Positions 4,633-41,197 of a DNA stretch of 64,000 nucleotides are shown here, piece after piece (the stretch's first letter is position 1; each line of letters begins with the position of its first letter). The notes under the pieces were generated by a model, which was not told the origin of the DNA, did no database searches, and worked only from the letters and a program-made list of their open reading frames with translations. A program made the position numbers and the translations under genes. Source of the DNA: a phage. The stretch lies in assembly GCA_026209155.1 (NCBI GenBank), contig GCA_026209155.1_3056.1. One strand, written 5' to 3'.

Positions 4633-4902
4633 TTTAAAACGGATAGTCGAATCCTTGAAGAATAGACCAGAACACACGGTTCCTTCTACTTTCTGCCCAG
4701 TAGGTCCAATAGCACGAAATCCAGTATGCTGGAAATCATTTTCAGAGCAACCGAACCAATTATATCCAGTGATTTCAATATTAGTAAAACCACTTGAAGA
4801 CAAAACTTTGGTTGCATTATCGGCATCAGTACATCCTACTAAAGATACTGCTAATACTAATGCCGCGATAGAACGATTAACATATTTCATAATTTCACTC
4901 AA
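4630..4902 (-). CDS. putative lipoprotein
   Basis: 90-aa ORF with signal peptide and lipobox (LAVSLVGC). Confidence 0.5.
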   Translation of the reverse strand: MSEIMKYVNRSIAALVLAVSLVGCTDADNATKVLSSSGFTNIEITGYNWFGCSENDFQHTGFRAIGPTGQKVEGTVCSGLFFKDSTIRFK

Positions 4903-5266
4903 ATTTAATGGCTTGAAGAAGACTAATAATTCTCAAGCGACTTCTTTCATCTTTAACTGTAAAAGAAAGAGGGTCACCAGATTTCATAGTGATGGTGCAT
5001 CCAAAATCAAAATCTTCTGTAACTTCTTCGAATAGGTCAAATTCTTCATCATAAATTAGAACATTACTCTGAAAACTGTGAAGAATTTTTCCATCATTTC
5101 CAGATGCTGTACTAATCACTGTAACATTATTACCTTTCATATCTTCAACGATAAATTCGCTTGTAGATATTACATTACTAATAGAACCATTCCTATAAAT
5201 AGCAGAAAATAGATATTTCTTTTCTTCACCTTCGCGAATGCGATATTTCTTACCGATTTTAAACAT
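4895..5266 (-). CDS. hypothetical protein
   Basis: Track ORF 4895..5272 begins with GTG; first ATG gives MFKIGKKYRIREGEEKK... (123 aa); ATGA-type junction with upstream small ORF. Confidence 0.45.
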   Translation of the reverse strand: MFKIGKKYRIREGEEKKYLFSAIYRNGSISNVISTSEFIVEDMKGNNVTVISTASGNDGKILHSFQSNVLIYDEEFDLFEEVTEDFDFGCTITMKSGDPLSFTVKDERSRLRIISLLQAIKFE

Positions 5267-5268
5267 AA

Positions 5269-5445
5269 TCACCCTTTAAGTAAGTCGTAAAAACCGCCAT
5301 TTACATGCTTAGGAGCAGAAGGCCGACGAGTAGACAAACGATGACATTTAGGGCAAACATCATTTTCTCGTTCAGAAATCTTTTTAATTTTTTCATATTC
5401 ATGCCCACAATCTTCGGATTGGCATTTATAATCATACATTGGCAT
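5269..5445 (-). CDS. FmdB-like zinc-ribbon mini-protein (58 aa)
   Basis: Not in ORF track (<60 aa). ATG at 5443-5445 preceded by AAGGAA; translates MPMYDYKCQSEDCGHEYEKIKKISERENDVCPKCHRLSTRRPSAPKHVNGGFYDLLKG with two CxxC pairs; stop overlaps next gene start. Confidence 0.45.
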   Translation of the reverse strand: MPMYDYKCQSEDCGHEYEKIKKISERENDVCPKCHRLSTRRPSAPKHVNGGFYDLLKG

Positions 5446-5447
5446 AA

Positions 5448-5867
5448 TTATTCCTTAAAATGTGCTTTCAACATCTGATACAAAGACCATGCATGTTCAT
5501 TATTTTCAATAGTAACTTTCATTACCGGGAATTCTGTGAAATCTTCTATTTGTTCTTGCTCTTCCTGCTCTTGTTCTTCAGCAGCCTGATATGGATTTTC
5601 AACTTCATCAAAGAACCCAGCTTCACTTTTTGAAAGCCAAATAAAGTCTTCATCCAAAACATCTTTATCAGGAGATAGTACTAAATTTCCAGTAGATGAC
5701 AAAATTTTAATAGGACGCCCAAGAGCGTCCACATCTAAAATTTTAAAAGGATACATACCTAAACGGCGCGCATAAATTCCGTTATTAATATGGTCTTTAA
5801 TAAAATTTTCTTGAGCTTGTTTATTTTTAAATTGATACCATTTATTAACTTCAAATCTAATAGCCAT
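5448..5867 (-). CDS. hypothetical acidic protein
   Basis: 139-aa ORF with [10 protein letters not shown] tract; length and position suggest T4 goF but I cannot verify. Confidence 0.45.
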
Positions 5868-11558: not shown

Positions 11559-11612
11559 CTTTATGAAAAATGCTTTAAAACTTTCATGGTATAATGAATC
11601 TAAGTCCTTCCA

Positions 11613-24672: not shown

Positions 24673-27369
24673 TCAGCCAAACAGGAAGTCTAACGAAGCT
24701 TTTTCTTCATAGTCCATACCAGCCGATTCACACATACCCGCAAGCGGTTTAACAAACGATTTTTGGAACAAAGTTGAGTAGTCAATCCAAGACAGTACAT
24801 CAGAACGAATTTCTTTTGGAAGTTCTGTGCCCGACGGCCAAGCAATGCACTTGTCACCAAATGGATTTCCTTCACGCAATGGAAGAACCATTACCTTATT
24901 TCCATCCAAAATTGGAGCTACACCTAAACCGCTAACAGCTCGACGATAAGTTAGCACACCACGAATATGGAACGGGCATTTAAATCCTGGCCAACCTTTA
25001 TCATCATATTTCGCTATATCGTTCGCAGTTTTTACTTCAGCAATAACTTTATAGTCAAGTTGACGATATTCTTTCTCGAAGTTCTTGTAATATTCTTGGA
25101 CAGACTCTTCACCTTCCTGAAGAATACGACGAATACTTTCTTCGAGAGCTTCTTGCACTGCCTTTGGTGTTGAACTCTGCTGAGTTTCCATACCCATGAT
25201 TTTTAGATGCGGTTCAGCAAATCGCTTATCTTCCATATCATAAACGTTCAGAGCATAACGCTTTTTCGCTTTCCAAAATCCACCAACGCCCTTTGAACCA
25301 AGCGGAGGGCAAGAAATAGCTTCACGGTCCATATGCATCAGATGCTCGCGGTTATTCATATAATCACATAACTCACGATATGCAACATCAATCATAGGTT
25401 CCATCTTTTTCTTACCGAACTGATTCATGAATTCAACTAAATCGTTCTGCTCTTTGAATCGGTCAAGACCAACTTTTTCAATAACTTTATCTACACAAAC
25501 ATATACCGAATCAGTATCACCTGCTGCAATGAAATCTTCACCATTAGTTCCGCATACTTTATTCAGATATTCATTAATTTTACGAGCAATCCACTGAATA
25601 CCAACTTGGCCGAAAATTGTGATAGCAGTAGCATTTCGCAAATCATAGTAACGGAAATGAATATTACCAAGAGCACCATAAAGACTGTTAATAAGAATTT
25701 TACGGTTCAGCTGATTTGTGTTAGCAAGTGTAGCCGCTTTTTCGCATTCCTCAATCAGACTATTGAGAACAGATTCAGTATAATTCGATAGTTCATTTAA
25801 GAAATCATCACTGAACTTAACATATCGTTCAACTTCTGGTTTAGTTGAACAGGACCCTGCGCCTTTCATAATAATCTTTTTAATAGCTTCGGCATTCATT
25901 TCTTCAGCGAACATTTTCTTTTTCCAATCTTTACGCTGGAAAAATACTTTAGCGATTTCCTTTGGAATGATACCTTCTTGATGCTTATCATACATCCATC
26001 CATTCGGAGAACAAGAATATTCATCACTCGGTTTAGGAGCTGTTCCTGCGATATATTCATGAATTGGATGAACTTTAAACTGCCCACGAATAGTCTCAGG
26101 ACTAATGTTAACCTGACGAATAATGCTCGGATACAGAGACGTCAAGTCAAAACTCATAATATATCGACGAGCAATTGGTTTAGGTTCAAATACAAATGCA
26201 CCCGGAAAACTTTGTTTAACGTGCGAACCTTGTTGAGGAATAACCTTGTGTTCACCTTTCAATGAGTTAAAAATAATAGCATCCCAAGTTTTAATAGGAC
26301 TCATTACACCAGAAAAAGGCATTTTAGCGTAATAAGACATACTTAAAACTAGATCGATAAACCCGCGAATTTTATCAATTGCTTGAACTGATTCTACGTC
26401 AATGATGTTATAACTAATGTATCGTTGATGATTAGTCTCACGAAGTTTATTAATAGGACCGTCGTATGGTAATTTACCTTTTTTGGTTTCATGTTGAGCA
26501 ACTGATTCCAAAGAGAATGACGGCAAATTAGTAAAAGCGAATTTCTTGTACAAATCTAAATAATCAAGAATAGATACGCCATCAATAGAATAAATTTCTT
26601 TGCTACCGTACATATTTTGAATTAGTTTAGATTTTACTCGACCGATTGGAGAGAAGCGTTTCATACTGCGTTCGCCCAGAACCATTTTAACACGATTCAT
26701 GATATACGGAACGTCAAATCCCTCAATATTCCAGCCGGTAAAAATAGCAGGTCTTTTCTGTTCCCAGAGATTAATATATTCCATGAGCATATCACGCTCA
26801 TTATCAAATGGCATATAAATTACTCGGTCAAGAATTTCTTGAGGAACTTCATCACCACCTTCACAGTCAAGCTTAGCAGCTAACTTTGCATCCCATTTTG
26901 ATACTGAACCATACATTGAATTCAAAAGGTCGAAAACATAAAAACGATCGTCAATTGAATCATAATGAGTGATAGCATCAATTTCATATTCTGCTTTCAT
27001 TGGGTCAGGAAATTTATCACCAGTAACCTCAATGTCACAGTTAGCTACACGAACAAATTTTCGGTCATAAACAATTTCTGAACCATACGTATCACTGATA
27101 TAAGCGAGTTTAAAATCGTTCATACCGAGAGCTTCGAGACCGATGTCTTCCATTCGCTTCATCCAATCTCGAGCATCTTTCATTGATGGAAATTTTTGAG
27201 GAGCGCAGTTTTTACCATAAATGTCTTTGTATTTTGACTCTTCCTTACAATGCCTAAACATAGTTGGAAGATATTCTACTTCACGAGTACGTTCCTTTCC
27301 GTTTTCATCAATATAACGTTCAACAATGTTATTTCCGACTGTTTCAATAGAGATATAAAATTCTTTCAT
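24673..27369 (-). CDS. 43: DNA polymerase (family B)
   Basis: 898-aa ORF with exonuclease and polymerase motifs (YGG, DTDS); same length as T4 gp43. Confidence 0.95.
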   Translation of the reverse strand: MKEFYISIETVGNNIVERYIDENGKERTREVEYLPTMFRHCKEESKYKDIYGKNCAPQKFPSMKDARDWMKRMEDIGLEALGMNDFKLAYISDTYGSEIVYDRKFVRVANCDIEVTGDKFPDPMKAEYEIDAITHYDSIDDRFYVFDLLNSMYGSVSKWDAKLAAKLDCEGGDEVPQEILDRVIYMPFDNERDMLMEYINLWEQKRPAIFTGWNIEGFDVPYIMNRVKMVLGERSMKRFSPIGRVKSKLIQNMYGSKEIYSIDGVSILDYLDLYKKFAFTNLPSFSLESVAQHETKKGKLPYDGPINKLRETNHQRYISYNIIDVESVQAIDKIRGFIDLVLSMSYYAKMPFSGVMSPIKTWDAIIFNSLKGEHKVIPQQGSHVKQSFPGAFVFEPKPIARRYIMSFDLTSLYPSIIRQVNISPETIRGQFKVHPIHEYIAGTAPKPSDEYSCSPNGWMYDKHQEGIIPKEIAKVFFQRKDWKKKMFAEEMNAEAIKKIIMKGAGSCSTKPEVERYVKFSDDFLNELSNYTESVLNSLIEECEKAATLANTNQLNRKILINSLYGALGNIHFRYYDLRNATAITIFGQVGIQWIARKINEYLNKVCGTNGEDFIAAGDTDSVYVCVDKVIEKVGLDRFKEQNDLVEFMNQFGKKKMEPMIDVAYRELCDYMNNREHLMHMDREAISCPPLGSKGVGGFWKAKKRYALNVYDMEDKRFAEPHLKIMGMETQQSSTPKAVQEALEESIRRILQEGEESVQEYYKNFEKEYRQLDYKVIAEVKTANDIAKYDDKGWPGFKCPFHIRGVLTYRRAVSGLGVAPILDGNKVMVLPLREGNPFGDKCIAWPSGTELPKEIRSDVLSWIDYSTLFQKSFVKPLAGMCESAGMDYEEKASLDFLFG

Positions 27370-29393: not shown

Positions 29394-30080
29394 TTAAAAA
29401 TCGTGGGTAGAATCAGCTTCAAGAGCTACTACATAATTCGCATGTTCACCTTCAAATTTAGCAGCACCTTGTTTACCTTTTGCCCAGAGCAGAAGTTTAT
29501 AATTTCCTGGTTGCATTTTCATATTTGCCATATTGATAATGAAATTAAATGTATTTTCACCATCATAATCACCAAGAGTCAAAGAATATTTAACACGGGT
29601 TAAAGCAGAATCTTCTACTTTATTAAAACCGTTAATTACGATTTTACCTTCTTTTACCGTGATAGCAATTGTATCAATTTGCAGACCACGGGATACACGC
29701 AACAGTTGTTGAAGGTCTTCAGCTTTAATTTCAGTAACAACAGATGCTACCGGGAATGGAATTGGTTTATTAGGAGCAACTACTGTACTCGGATCGGCTG
29801 CTGGCCAAAAAATTGTTGAACGAGCATCAGCAATTTTAATATTTCCATCTTCTGACTGGGAAATTTCTGCATCATCATTAACTAGAGACAGAATACCGAG
29901 AAAACCGTTCAAATCGTAAATTGCTACATCAAAATCAATAACGTCAGAAATATTTGCTTCCGCATAAGTTGTACCATTAACTGCACGAGTCATAATAAAT
30001 TGACCAGATTTAAGCATAATACCGGAGTTAATAGTAGCGAAATTTTTCAAAATATTCAGTGTGTCTTTAGATAATTTCAT
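29394..30080 (-). CDS. 45: sliding clamp
   Basis: 228-aa [31 protein letters not shown]...; same length as T4 gp45. Confidence 0.9.
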   Translation of the reverse strand: MKLSKDTLNILKNFATINSGIMLKSGQFIMTRAVNGTTYAEANISDVIDFDVAIYDLNGFLGILSLVNDDAEISQSEDGNIKIADARSTIFWPAADPSTVVAPNKPIPFPVASVVTEIKAEDLQQLLRVSRGLQIDTIAITVKEGKIVINGFNKVEDSALTRVKYSLTLGDYDGENTFNFIINMANMKMQPGNYKLLLWAKGKQGAAKFEGEHANYVVALEADSTHDF

Positions 30081-30964
30081 TTCAATTTCCTATTTACATA
30101 ATAGTTAGACCAGGACCGTACAGCACCCTGATAAGATTCGTCGTTAAACCCATTAGCTACTGCAATTTTACGAAATTTATTATAACTCGGTTTTCCGTAA
30201 GCATGCCATAAAGTTTTTAATTCATCTTCATGTTCAATCCAAGTTCCTCTAGCTTTAGATTTTCTAAATTTTGATTTGAATTCCGGTAAATTATTTCTAA
30301 CAGTTGCTTGAATTGAAGCTCTCTGTCTTCTTTCAGCATTATTCCATAACTCTTTTTGAGATTTAGAAATTTTTGATCTTACACTTTCTGAATTCATTAT
30401 ATCACTAAACTTTTTAGCATAACTACAATCAAGATATTTCAATTTCATCTTATTTGAAAGTTTAAGCTTTTTCTCATCGGTCCAGTGATTCTTCATTGAA
30501 TTAGATATTTTATATTTTACGCCAGAACTATGTTTGTAACCTTTACGAATACCAACATAATCGGGCGTAATTTCAGATTGCGAAAGCTTTACAATTTTTC
30601 CAGTTAAAACATTTTTATATGTTCCATATCCTTTAGCGCCAATTAAAGTATTTTCATCTGCGTATGCTTTATTAAAATATTTTATATTGCTTTTTGCTTT
30701 AACTTTTAATTGAAAAAATCTTTCCAATTTTCTTGGATCTAATATAGTTTCAGCTAAAATTTTGACGGTATATTTAGTGGTTTTAATAAGCTCAAAATAT
30801 TCATCACTATAACTCGATGACACGCTTCCAGTATAAATCTTTCCAGCTGAATCAATTATATTTGTTCCATCGAAAATTGCGTTAATTTTTGAACCTATAT
30901 AATAACACGGAAAAATATTTTTAGCTTCCCGCTCTGGAAAGCTAATAAGATATACTAAATTCAT
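30077..30964 (-). CDS. homing-endonuclease-like protein (GIY-YIG-like N-terminus, NUMOD3-like basic repeats)
   Basis: 295-aa ORF between genes 45 and rpbA with 4-nt overlaps on both sides; LVYLISF...CYYIGSK motif and K/R-rich repeats ([16 protein letters not shown]). Confidence 0.5.
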
Positions 30965-31350
30965 TTATTAAACTCGGCCACAATTGTTTCCGCAACAATT
31001 TGAGCAGCAACAATCAGACGTTCATCTGCATTACCGCAATATTCATCTTCAAGGCGTTCACCACATGAAGTCATAATAAATTTAGCACCAGCGTTTAGGG
31101 ATTCTGTAGTATGTTTGCGCATTAGTTCAATCCATTTATTACTTACTTCACGATCGATAGCTTCATAATACGCATGACGAGCAGGTGCAGATTTAATTTT
31201 GTTCTGAATAACTTCCATTGCGTTATCAGAAAGAGACAAAACCCATGCTCGACGAATTTTATTTTGGTTTTGTGGATTTGATTCAGAACGCACGTGTTTT
31301 GGCTGAATATCTTTTACGTCAACAGTATAATTCACAGTAATTTTAGTCAT
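30961..31350 (-). CDS. rpbA: RNA polymerase-binding protein RpbA
   Basis: 129-aa ORF at the expected position upstream of gene 45; same length as T4 RpbA. Confidence 0.65.
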
Positions 31351-39899: not shown

Positions 39900-40370
39900 T
39901 TAATCATGTTTCCACACCCCATCGGTATTTGACCAAAGTCGCTGATTATCTGAACCTCGCCACAGCTTTTTAGTCGGAAGATTTTTCTCATACTTCCCAT
40001 CAATAATAACATCAACATATTTAAGCATTTCTAGTTGTTTAATATCTTCAAACTTGTACCCTGTCCACAACCAAATGCTTTTATTTGGATAAAGATTTTT
40101 TACAGTTTGAACAATGCAATGAACATCATCTCGGTTATCAGGATAAAGAGGGTCACCTCCGGTTATAGTTAATCCTTCTATATAATCATTATTCAAACAT
40201 TCAATCAATTGTTCTAGTGTTTCACCAGTAAATGGAATACCATTTCTAGCATTCCATGTTGATTTATTATAACACCCTTCGCATTTATGCAAACAACCTG
40301 TAACGAAAAGAACGACCCTGCATCCAGGGCCATTCACAAAATCGCAAGGATAAAATCTATCATAATTCAT
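39900..40370 (-). CDS. nrdG: anaerobic ribonucleotide reductase activating protein (radical SAM)
   Basis: Start at internal ATG gives MNYDRFYPCDFVNGPGCRVVLFVTGCLHKCEGC (156 aa) with a CxxxCxxC-type cluster. Confidence 0.8.
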   Translation of the reverse strand: MNYDRFYPCDFVNGPGCRVVLFVTGCLHKCEGCYNKSTWNARNGIPFTGETLEQLIECLNNDYIEGLTITGGDPLYPDNRDDVHCIVQTVKNLYPNKSIWLWTGYKFEDIKQLEMLKYVDVIIDGKYEKNLPTKKLWRGSDNQRLWSNTDGVWKHD

Positions 40371-41197
40371 AATAATATCCAATTTTTCCAAGCTTCATCA
40401 GTAGAATTACAGCGTTTTAGTATAAGATGTCTAGAAACTTTTATGGAATTTGAGCACTTTTTAATTGAATCATATTTAATACCGTCAACTGAAACGGTTT
40501 TGCTAGTTGGAGAAATTTTTCCATACATTGGATTTTTTGAACCAACTTGAAGTCCTTTTAAAGCTTTTGAAAGCTTTTGTCTAGATTCCAATGACATGGG
40601 AGAATTCTTTTTACCTTCAATAATTCGCTTGCGATGAAGTTCGCGTTCTTCTTCACTCAAAGAATTGTAATATTTTTTAACACCGTTTGATATAGATAAT
40701 TTATCTTTCTCAGACCGCTCTCCAGCTAATTTACTTCTAACATCTTTTCGCTTCATAGCTATGCTTACGGCTTTATTTAAATTTGCTTGATGCTCTGGCG
40801 TACGTTTATATTTCTTTAAAGCACGTGAAATAGCTATTTTAGTTTCTTCTGTTCTCTTTTTACCTTTATTTGCTAAACTATTTTTGTGGCGATGTTCAAG
40901 TGTCTGTTCATAGGCAGTTCCACCTTTTCCACCAGGTTTAATATTATATGTATTTTCTTTTAGACAATACTCTTCAGTTACAAGTTCAGCTTCTTTATCA
41001 TACATTTGCTTTTCATTATCAAAAACATATAAAATTTCTTTATAAAAATTTTTTATACCATATTTTAATAAAGCAGCACGAATCAATGTTCCTGATCCCA
41101 TATAACCGTCATTTATATTATCGGTGCTATGCGCACCGATATATTCCTTTGAATTAATTATATTTGTTATTTTATAAATTATATAATACCTATGCAT
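40367..41197 (-). CDS. free-standing GIY-YIG homing endonuclease (Seg-like)
   Basis: 276-aa ORF; N-terminal YYIIYKITNIINSKEYIGAHS motif; NUMOD3-like repeats (KGKKRTEETKIAISRALK, SPMSLESRQKLSKALKG); wedged between nrdD and nrdG with 4-8 nt overlaps. Confidence 0.7.
   Translation of the reverse strand: MHRYYIIYKITNIINSKEYIGAHSTDNINDGYMGSGTLIRAALLKYGIKNFYKEILYVFDNEKQMYDKEAELVTEEYCLKENTYNIKPGGKGGTAYEQTLEHRHKNSLANKGKKRTEETKIAISRALKKYKRTPEHQANLNKAVSIAMKRKDVRSKLAGERSEKDKLSISNGVKKYYNSLSEEERELHRKRIIEGKKNSPMSLESRQKLSKALKGLQVGSKNPMYGKISPTSKTVSVDGIKYDSIKKCSNSIKVSRHLILKRCNSTDEAWKNWILL

Follow-up and report, generated by a model that had tools for sequence, protein, structure and literature searches.

The rpbA/gene 45 junction of the window

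The DNA analysed here (the window) is a stretch of 64,000 nucleotides (nt) from a phage (NCBI GenBank assembly GCA_026209155.1, contig GCA_026209155.1_3056.1), and the subject of this analysis is an open reading frame (ORF) on its minus strand, between the sliding clamp gene (gene 45) and rpbA, which is very probably a SegG-like GIY-YIG free-standing homing endonuclease gene. The ORF listing of the window gives it an ATG start and 295 amino acids (aa), and reading of the DNA confirmed the 4-nt overlaps with both neighbours that had been described in an initial annotation made without database searches. Each overlap has the sequence ATGA: the endonuclease TGA stop (30077–30079) overlaps the ATG of gene 45 (30078–30080), and the endonuclease ATG (30962–30964) overlaps the TGA of rpbA (30961–30963). 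The features of the locus are collected in Table 1.

In phage T4 (NC_000866) rpbA and gene 45 are separated by a spacer of 55 bp with no gene in it, in agreement with the statement of the initial annotation that T4 has no gene of this size here, and the same geneless spacer is found in phage ESh32 and in five other phages that lack the endonuclease. The cassette swaps out exactly the last rpbA codon, the stop codon and the 55-bp spacer of these empty-site phages. G+C content is 27–29% across the endonuclease ORF compared with 34–37% in the flanks. A chance ORF can be dismissed because the protein matches PHROG 655, has 267 relatives among cluster representatives, differs between copies mostly at synonymous codon positions, and coincides with the dip in G+C content.

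Table 1. Features of the rpbA/gene 45 region, with positions in the window and the basis of each assignment
Feature	Position	Strand	Basis
SegG-like GIY-YIG free-standing homing endonuclease gene (very probable), 295 aa	30077..30964	-	ORF; PHROG 655; SegG identity; presence/absence
Residues 1–104: SegG-type GIY-YIG catalytic domain (candidate residues Y5, Y22-I23-G24, E81, N98; K26, Y44, S47 conserved)	30653..30964	-	
Residues 105–141: low-confidence linker, then three-stranded beta module (...YVGI) that corresponds to no known domain	30542..30652	-	Family-conserved columns; no Pfam match
Residues 142–231: basic helical repeats, degenerate NUMOD3-like; least conserved	30272..30541	-	Pfam E = 4 and aligned position
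Residues 232–295: C-terminal helical (helix-turn-helix-like) DNA-binding module, Seg/Mob type; most conserved	30077..30271	-	phmmer
Candidate MotA-dependent middle promoter for gene 45 inside the endonuclease coding sequence: TGCTTAC, 12 nt, TATAAT	30179..30203	-	Pattern match
Shine-Dalgarno AGGAAA for gene 45, from Arg-Lys codons of the endonuclease C-terminus (NRKxK*)	30086..30091	-	Conserved
Upstream junction: last rpbA codon and stop CGT TAA to AAA TGA, creating the ATGA overlap	30961..30966	-	Only fixed differences on the rpbA side
Recoded gene 45 5' end: synonymous changes at nt 7, 9 and 18 (CTG to TTA, GAT to GAC)	30063..30074	-	Fixed differences
gene 45 (sliding clamp), downstream neighbour; empty-site alleles are the predicted location of the cleavage target	29394..30080	-	ORF; annotation of relatives
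rpbA, upstream neighbour	30961..31350	-	ORF; annotation of relatives

Family assignment and the GIY-YIG domain

The protein matched PHROG 655, annotated as 'homing endonuclease', with an E-value of 7e-32 and PHROG 7504, of the same name, with 5e-18, while residues 1–102 were 40% identical to T4 SegG (BLASTP E 1e-16; tblastn 3e-9) and matches in BFVD included SegG, Gp32.1 and Seg-like proteins. Together with the empty T4 site, the PHROG 655 and SegG matches bear out the initial proposal that a homing-endonuclease-like gene is inserted between gene 45 and rpbA. The two motifs on which that proposal had drawn are present, LVYLISF at residues 3–9 and CYYIGSK at residues 20–26. Ten residues do not vary among 15 members of the family (Y5, Y21, Y22, I23, G24, S25, Y44, S47, E81 and N98), a set that covers the GIY tyrosine, the YIG motif and the catalytic glutamate and asparagine of the GIY-YIG superfamily. 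In the N-terminal domain we found the three-stranded sheet plus helices of the GIY-YIG fold, with Y5 of LVYLISF as the GIY tyrosine, Y22-I23-G24 of YYIGSK as the YIG motif, and E81 and N98 in the roles of I-TevI E75 and N90. The family segment comprising strand 3, helix 3 and the asparagine aligned to the ERE...YN segment of SegA with an hhalign probability of 87%.

Canonical GIY-YIG enzymes have 10–11 residues between the two motifs. The window protein has 16 between Tyr5 and Tyr22, a longer spacing that had been pointed out in the initial annotation, and T4 SegG has the identical 16. MAFFT and hhalign comparisons with I-TevI suggested an alternative register, in which YYI would be the GIY motif and KIYTGS the YIG motif; this is less favoured because SegA has a canonical GIY...YIG pair plus a later YxGSG motif. 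When the family profile was compared by hhalign with the single I-TevI sequence, the result was an 11-column match with a probability of 2%, and no residue map to I-TevI was obtained. Searches of Pfam, NCBIfam and PDB sequences, with the single sequence and with a profile, gave nothing significant.

The DNA-binding half of the protein

Behind the catalytic domain, the predicted model places the strands of the beta module at residues 113–118, 124–128 and 136–138, basic helices at residues 147–235 and a C-terminal helical module at residues 243–291. Mean pairwise identity, computed by region among the four variants that occupy the rpbA/gene 45 junction (described below), was 77% for the C-terminal module, 61% for the GIY-YIG domain (48 of 104 positions invariant), 53% for the beta module and 37% for the NUMOD3-like helices.

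The NUMOD3-like repeats of the initial annotation were retained only in part. Pfam NUMOD3 (PF07460) aligned with residues 142–158 at no better than E = 4 and none of the four junction variants passed, although the aligned position was significant in two distant family members, P0008 (3e-7) and P0010 (1.6e-10); this weakly suggests that the first helical repeat may be the positional homologue of NUMOD3 in these proteins and degenerate here. The C-terminal module matched an HNH Mob-like protein of Krischvirus PHB13 (phmmer 5.9e-10), in which the module occurs twice, and its motif (W...ELxxLW...GKP...A...GF...SY) was recognised by eye in the tails of SegA and SegF. Judged from these similarities, the occurrence of one module in SegA, SegF and an HNH protein is what the shuffling of modules among nuclease classes typically produces.

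Distribution among phages

In a megablast search of 50,697 phage records the locus matched 693, about 505 of them Tequatrovirus at ≥95% identity. Only 25 records covered the insert, the rest aligning in two pieces around it, which puts the carrier frequency at about 5% among close T4-like relatives; tblastn recovered the same 25 records, with 95–99% identity. The gene is already labelled 'homing endonuclease' or 'putative homing endonuclease' in RefSeq SHBML-50-1, BASEL Bas45 PaulHMueller and F13076, and a literature search for rpbA and homing endonuclease yielded no description of an element at the rpbA/gene 45 junction.

More diverged variants occupy the same junction. Mosigvirus AV114 encodes a 60%-identical protein there, with an ATGA overlap onto gene 45, and among about 154 close Mosigvirus records 10 carry this variant; the variants P0003 and P0004 (56–57% identical) come from metagenomic T4-like contigs, on which they are flanked by Phage_RpbA and gp45 genes. 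All four variants are full length and only 50–62% identical to one another. AV114 and P0003 share 62% identity in the endonuclease and 60% in gp45, whereas the window and AV114 share 60% in the endonuclease and 79% in gp45, so that the endonuclease identities do not track those of gp45, which fits lateral movement between lineages.

Other endonuclease genes were seen in the window and in its relatives. A 276-aa SegA-like ORF at 40367–41197 (minus strand) of the window matched T4 SegA (phmmer 1e-26) and also SegF, had a Pfam NUMOD3 match and a weak I-TevI_DNA-bd match, and has the anaerobic ribonucleotide reductase gene as its neighbour in about 70 phage records (≥95% identity). It is probably the 'first' endonuclease gene that the initial annotation had in mind when it rightly called the junction gene the second in the window. 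Salmonella phage F13076 carries an HNH Mob-like gene (4804–5520, plus strand) on the opposite strand between genes 45.2 and 46, and PaulHMueller a 207-aa GIY-YIG-like gene (25428–26051, minus strand) between gene 47 and a-gt. Neither is present in the window, where no ORF of at least 100 aa occurs at those places, and an endonuclease gene of the PaulHMueller type between gene 47 and a-gt was accordingly rejected for the window.

Putative expression signals embedded in the endonuclease gene

In all four variants a MotA-box-like element, 12 nt and a -10 hexamer occur within the coding sequence, 127 nt from the ORF end. Middle promoters follow the consensus (a/t)(a/t)(a/t)TGCTTtA, 12 ± 1 bp from TAtaaT (PMC2988021), and the three variants other than that of the window read (A/T)(A/T)TGCTTTA, 12 nt, TATATT, which fits the full (a/t)3-TGCTTtA box. 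T4 has a promoter Pm45 (PMC6024815); by our own reading, the T4 spacer that is lost on insertion contains a MotA box (AATTGCTTTA), 12 nt and TAAAAT. The embedded pair probably replaces the displaced Pm45, judging by its sequence, and we think it somewhat likelier to be a working middle promoter for gene 45 than a fortuitous motif. The 64-kb window contains two matches to the pattern, against 0.07 expected; the other match to TGCTTWM-N12-TATAWT, at 11571–11595 on the plus strand (TGCTTTAAAACTTTCATGGTATAAT), is a candidate MotA-type middle promoter in its own right.

The Shine-Dalgarno sequence of gene 45 is likewise supplied by endonuclease codons, the N-R-K-x-K codons spelling AATAGGAAA immediately before the ATGA overlap in each of the four variants; the T4 equivalent is AAGGAAATTAC-ATG. 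Between rpbA and the endonuclease start no promoter-like site was found, a sigma-70 scan remaining at chance level, and the gene is therefore apparently a promoter-less cassette reached by read-through from rpbA, with which it is probably co-transcribed and translationally coupled. Embedded promoters and promoter-less cassettes have been described for the T4 seg and mob genes (PMC2988022). A search for late promoters found only one-mismatch TATAAATA-like sites, for example TGTAAATA at 30098, and none is claimed. A terminator-like hairpin at 30921–30945 (minus strand; 10 bp and an A/T-rich tail, 17 nt inside the ORF) was rejected, having a z-score of -0.95 and being absent from the Mosigvirus variant.

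Recoding of gene 45 and the predicted target

For 8 carriers and 6 empty-site phages, the sequences on the two sides of the insert were aligned separately; a whole-locus MAFFT alignment was unusable, scattering the 55-bp spacer over the insert and producing false 'fixed differences' inside the ORF. Among these 14 loci the only fixed differences between carriers and empty-site phages were nt 7, 9 and 18 of gene 45 and the last rpbA codon and stop, and beyond roughly 100–200 nt carriers differed from non-carriers no more than members did within either group. The three gene 45 changes are perfectly linked to the endonuclease, unlike the polymorphisms on the rpbA side, which are already shuffled among carriers 7–25 nt from the junction. 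All 25 carriers had at least 3 mismatches to an artificial chimera of the endonuclease plus a T4-type gene 45. A scan of IMG/VR for junction chimeras was powerless, with 0 carrier and 5 empty-site parental junctions, and the phage collection was used instead.

The Mosigvirus lineage shows a stronger form of the same pattern. Compared with the empty-site phage S143_2, AV114 has 13 differences in nt 9–26 of gene 45 and 9 in the other roughly 660 nt, and the formal test gave 9 differences in the first 21 nt (P about 1e-10). Its recoded stretch (AGC CGT GAA ACC) resembles the gene 45 starts beside P0004 and P0003, and the empty-site alleles of T4 and Mosigvirus have an identical 21-mer in common, ATGAAACTGTCTAAAGATACT. 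From the linked recoding we infer a recognition or cleavage site at or near the gene 45 5' end of empty-site phages, to which we give roughly even odds; the recoding itself is predicted to represent either target-site immunity or a footprint of co-conversion.

Escherichia phage LH2 (OQ378934.1) has, at 560–760, an empty rpbA/gene 45 site with a T4-type spacer and carrier-type flanks, namely the carrier-type gene 45 start (AAA TTA TCT AAA GAC) and the carrier-type rpbA tail (AEFN), and is the sole record with the variant gene 45 start among about 479 empty-site records. It is an empty site of the carrier haplotype, which could date from before insertion or have come about through precise loss or through selection for resistance. 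Adjoining the predicted target, at 30048–30060 of the window (gene 45 nt 21–33), empty-site alleles fall into two classes for codons 8–11, TTALL in T4 and PhiZZ6 and TLNIL in the window and most others, which differ at 10 of 13 nt.

Selection, activity and competing explanations

Of the 8 Tequatrovirus carriers examined, 7 have an intact ORF, and six close copies differ from that of the window by synonymous to non-synonymous codon changes of 12:3, 10:3, 16:7, 12:4, 11:4 and 6:6, mostly synonymous as expected under purifying selection. Homing-endonuclease life cycles predict decaying copies, and some were observed. In Shigella phage ESh24 (an UNVERIFIED record) a T6-to-T7 frameshift at nt 253 splits the ORF, the copies of the Mosigvirus phages FL18 and AV111 match as two tblastn pieces only, and BFVD holds fragments of 120–210 aa at 55–62% identity. 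Such copies may be either decaying genes or sequencing errors.

Our overall account, that a homing endonuclease cassette of the SegG branch occupies the rpbA/gene 45 junction of T4-like phages, has in our estimate a probability of about 0.8. Several findings weigh against it or against parts of it. There is no conserved arginine at the place of I-TevI R27 and no invariant arginine or histidine between G24 and strand 3; Pfam PF01541 (GIY-YIG) does not match the window protein; Foldseek gave no matches in the PDB; and the broken copies just described exist in ESh24, FL18 and AV111. The conservation of the embedded promoter motif may follow in part from conserved residues (W-x-A-L-G-K-P-x-Y-I) and AT-rich codons. 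As to the target, the fixed gene 45 single-nucleotide polymorphisms lie only 7–18 nt from the junction, where they may have hitch-hiked from the haplotype first invaded, and LH2 shows that they can occur without the endonuclease; hitch-hiking or co-conversion alone could thus be the source of the gene 45 footprints.

The first two of these points extend to known Seg proteins. In the family Y44 and S47 are invariant and K26 nearly so, and SegA likewise lacks an arginine of the R27 type. PF01541 matched only 1 of 15 relatives, at E 0.16, and in a control T4 SegG was equally unmatched while SegA (3e-9) and I-TevI matched, which makes the missing Pfam match a property of the SegG clade. SegG is reported to be an active endonuclease that drives marker exclusion and excludes T2 gene 32 (table in PMC2988022; PMC2330249), and since it shares both the long spacing and the absent Pfam match, neither is a sign of inactivation. 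Of the initial description of the N-terminus as degenerate, GIY-YIG-like and perhaps inactive, the GIY-YIG character therefore holds, the signature residues being kept, and the suggestion of inactivity is not supported; the invariance of the signature residues and the mostly synonymous substitutions in an ORF that is full length in four diverged lineages also speak against it. With no equivalent of R27, activity is not readable from sequence alone; we regard it as fairly likely that the endonuclease is currently active and mobile.

The lack of an arginine equivalent to R27, the low frequency of about 5% and the occurrence of broken copies would all suit a decaying or dead endonuclease kept only as the carrier of the gene 45 promoter and ribosome-binding site, in effect a translated regulatory spacer, the more so as the embedded MotA box/-10 pair and Shine-Dalgarno sequence make deletion costly even without nuclease activity. 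We consider this unlikely: the full-length ORF has been kept in four lineages 50–62% identical, the catalytic-type residues are invariant in 15 members of a wider family with 267 cluster representatives, substitutions are mostly synonymous over the whole ORF and not just in its 3' part, and T4 SegG, reportedly an active enzyme (PMC2988022), has the same 'defects'. Less probable still is that the protein, of endonuclease descent, regulates the expression of gene 45 or rpbA by binding DNA sequence-specifically. The gene lies directly upstream of gene 45 and the C-terminal DNA-binding module is its most conserved region (77%), but the N-terminal domain is well conserved too, the nuclease signature residues are kept, and 95% of relatives express gene 45 without the endonuclease; we give this explanation hardly any credence.

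Between these two in probability, and improbable as a full explanation, stands a domesticated nuclease acting as a weapon against competing T4-like genomes or satellites, whose target need not be its own locus. SegG and SegF cause marker exclusion, SegG cuts at a distance from where it is inserted, as stated in the title of a 2003 paper by Liu et al. (cited in PMC2330249 and PMC10448857), defence genes derived from homing endonuclease genes exist, such as odn in ICP1 (PMC10448857), and the gene adjoins replication genes. All four diverged variants nevertheless sit at the same junction and the recoding clusters in the adjoining codons of gene 45, which together point to a target at the element's own locus, and a weapon of this kind overlaps with a homing endonuclease cassette rather than opposing it.

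Proposed mechanism and significance

On the account of a homing endonuclease cassette, the promoter-less gene would share the rpbA transcript and be weakly translated by way of the ATGA overlap. On co-infection with an empty-site phage, the C-terminal modules would bind the rpbA/gene 45 junction and the tethered GIY-YIG domain would make a cut close by, for which the conserved beginning of gene 45 (its first 25 nt or so) or the DNA next to it is the likeliest place. Recombination-dependent repair of T4 type, with the carrier genome as template, would then copy the endonuclease gene together with short tracts flanking it. The outcome would be homing, or the loss of the gene 45 allele of the rival through marker exclusion. 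Carriers would be protected twice, by the splitting of the site through the insertion and by the recoding of the first codons of gene 45. The native Pm45 and ribosome-binding site would be removed on insertion and their replacements supplied in the 3' coding region of the cassette (MotA box/-10 and AGGAAA), keeping the essential clamp gene expressed and penalising deletion of the element.

A more far-reaching proposal, which we put forward tentatively and think somewhat less probable than its opposite, joins two ideas: that the SegG clade may have a variant GIY-YIG active site without the canonical arginine, with Lys26, Tyr44 or Ser47 instead, and that the element may be a self-contained 'expression-swap' cassette, which makes itself addictive by putting a promoter and ribosome-binding site of its own in place of those of the clamp gene. 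If true, loss of the selfish gene would be counter-selected.

If the enzyme is active, it would add to the Seg-type endonucleases one whose predicted target is defined, namely the first codons of gene 45 beside the rpbA/gene 45 spacer, and the gene that it precedes is required for replication as well as for late transcription. With carriers and empty-site phages available in culture collections (BASEL Bas45; T4 or T2), four variants and LH2, the locus is a handy experimental system, suited to the study of target choice by free-standing endonucleases, of the part that co-conversion tracts play in the mosaic of replication genes, and of how elements spare their host by carrying replacement promoters. 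Current understanding is unchanged by it, since embedded promoters, promoter-less cassettes and recoded targets are known for T4 seg and mob genes.

Comparison with known systems

With I-TevI the window protein shares the two-part architecture of a catalytic domain tethered to a DNA-binding domain. I-TevI differs in being intron-encoded (td), in its 10–11 aa spacing and in possessing the R27 helix, a zinc finger and an I-TevI-type helix-turn-helix; these features are not detectable in the window protein, and the sequence similarity is not significant (hhalign probability 2%). The C-terminal helical module, and a design that combines a nuclease domain, NUMOD3 (in the window protein a degenerate, NUMOD3-like repeat) and a helix-turn-helix, are shared with SegA, SegF and Mob-type HNH proteins, although SegA has a canonical catalytic domain (Pfam GIY-YIG 3e-9) where that of the window protein is of the SegG type, and the PHB13 protein has an HNH nuclease domain.

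T4 SegG (gp32.1), encoded between genes 59 and 32, offers the closest parallel for the catalytic half: the N-terminal domains share 40% identity over some 100 residues and agree in their long GIY-to-YIG spacing, in YYIGSK and in the glutamate and YFN positions, and neither protein matches Pfam GIY-YIG. The two genes also seem alike in genetic setting, each being a promoter-less cassette before an essential replication gene with promoters embedded in it, as described for segG (PMC2988022) and as we infer for the window gene. They differ in locus (59/32 compared with rpbA/45), in length (210 aa compared with 295 aa) and in everything after residue 102, where the sequences are unrelated and the window protein has instead the beta module, the NUMOD3-like helices and the C-terminal module of SegA/SegF type. 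Set beside these systems, the rpbA/gene 45 endonuclease is an uncharacterised member of a familiar T4 type and not a new kind of element.

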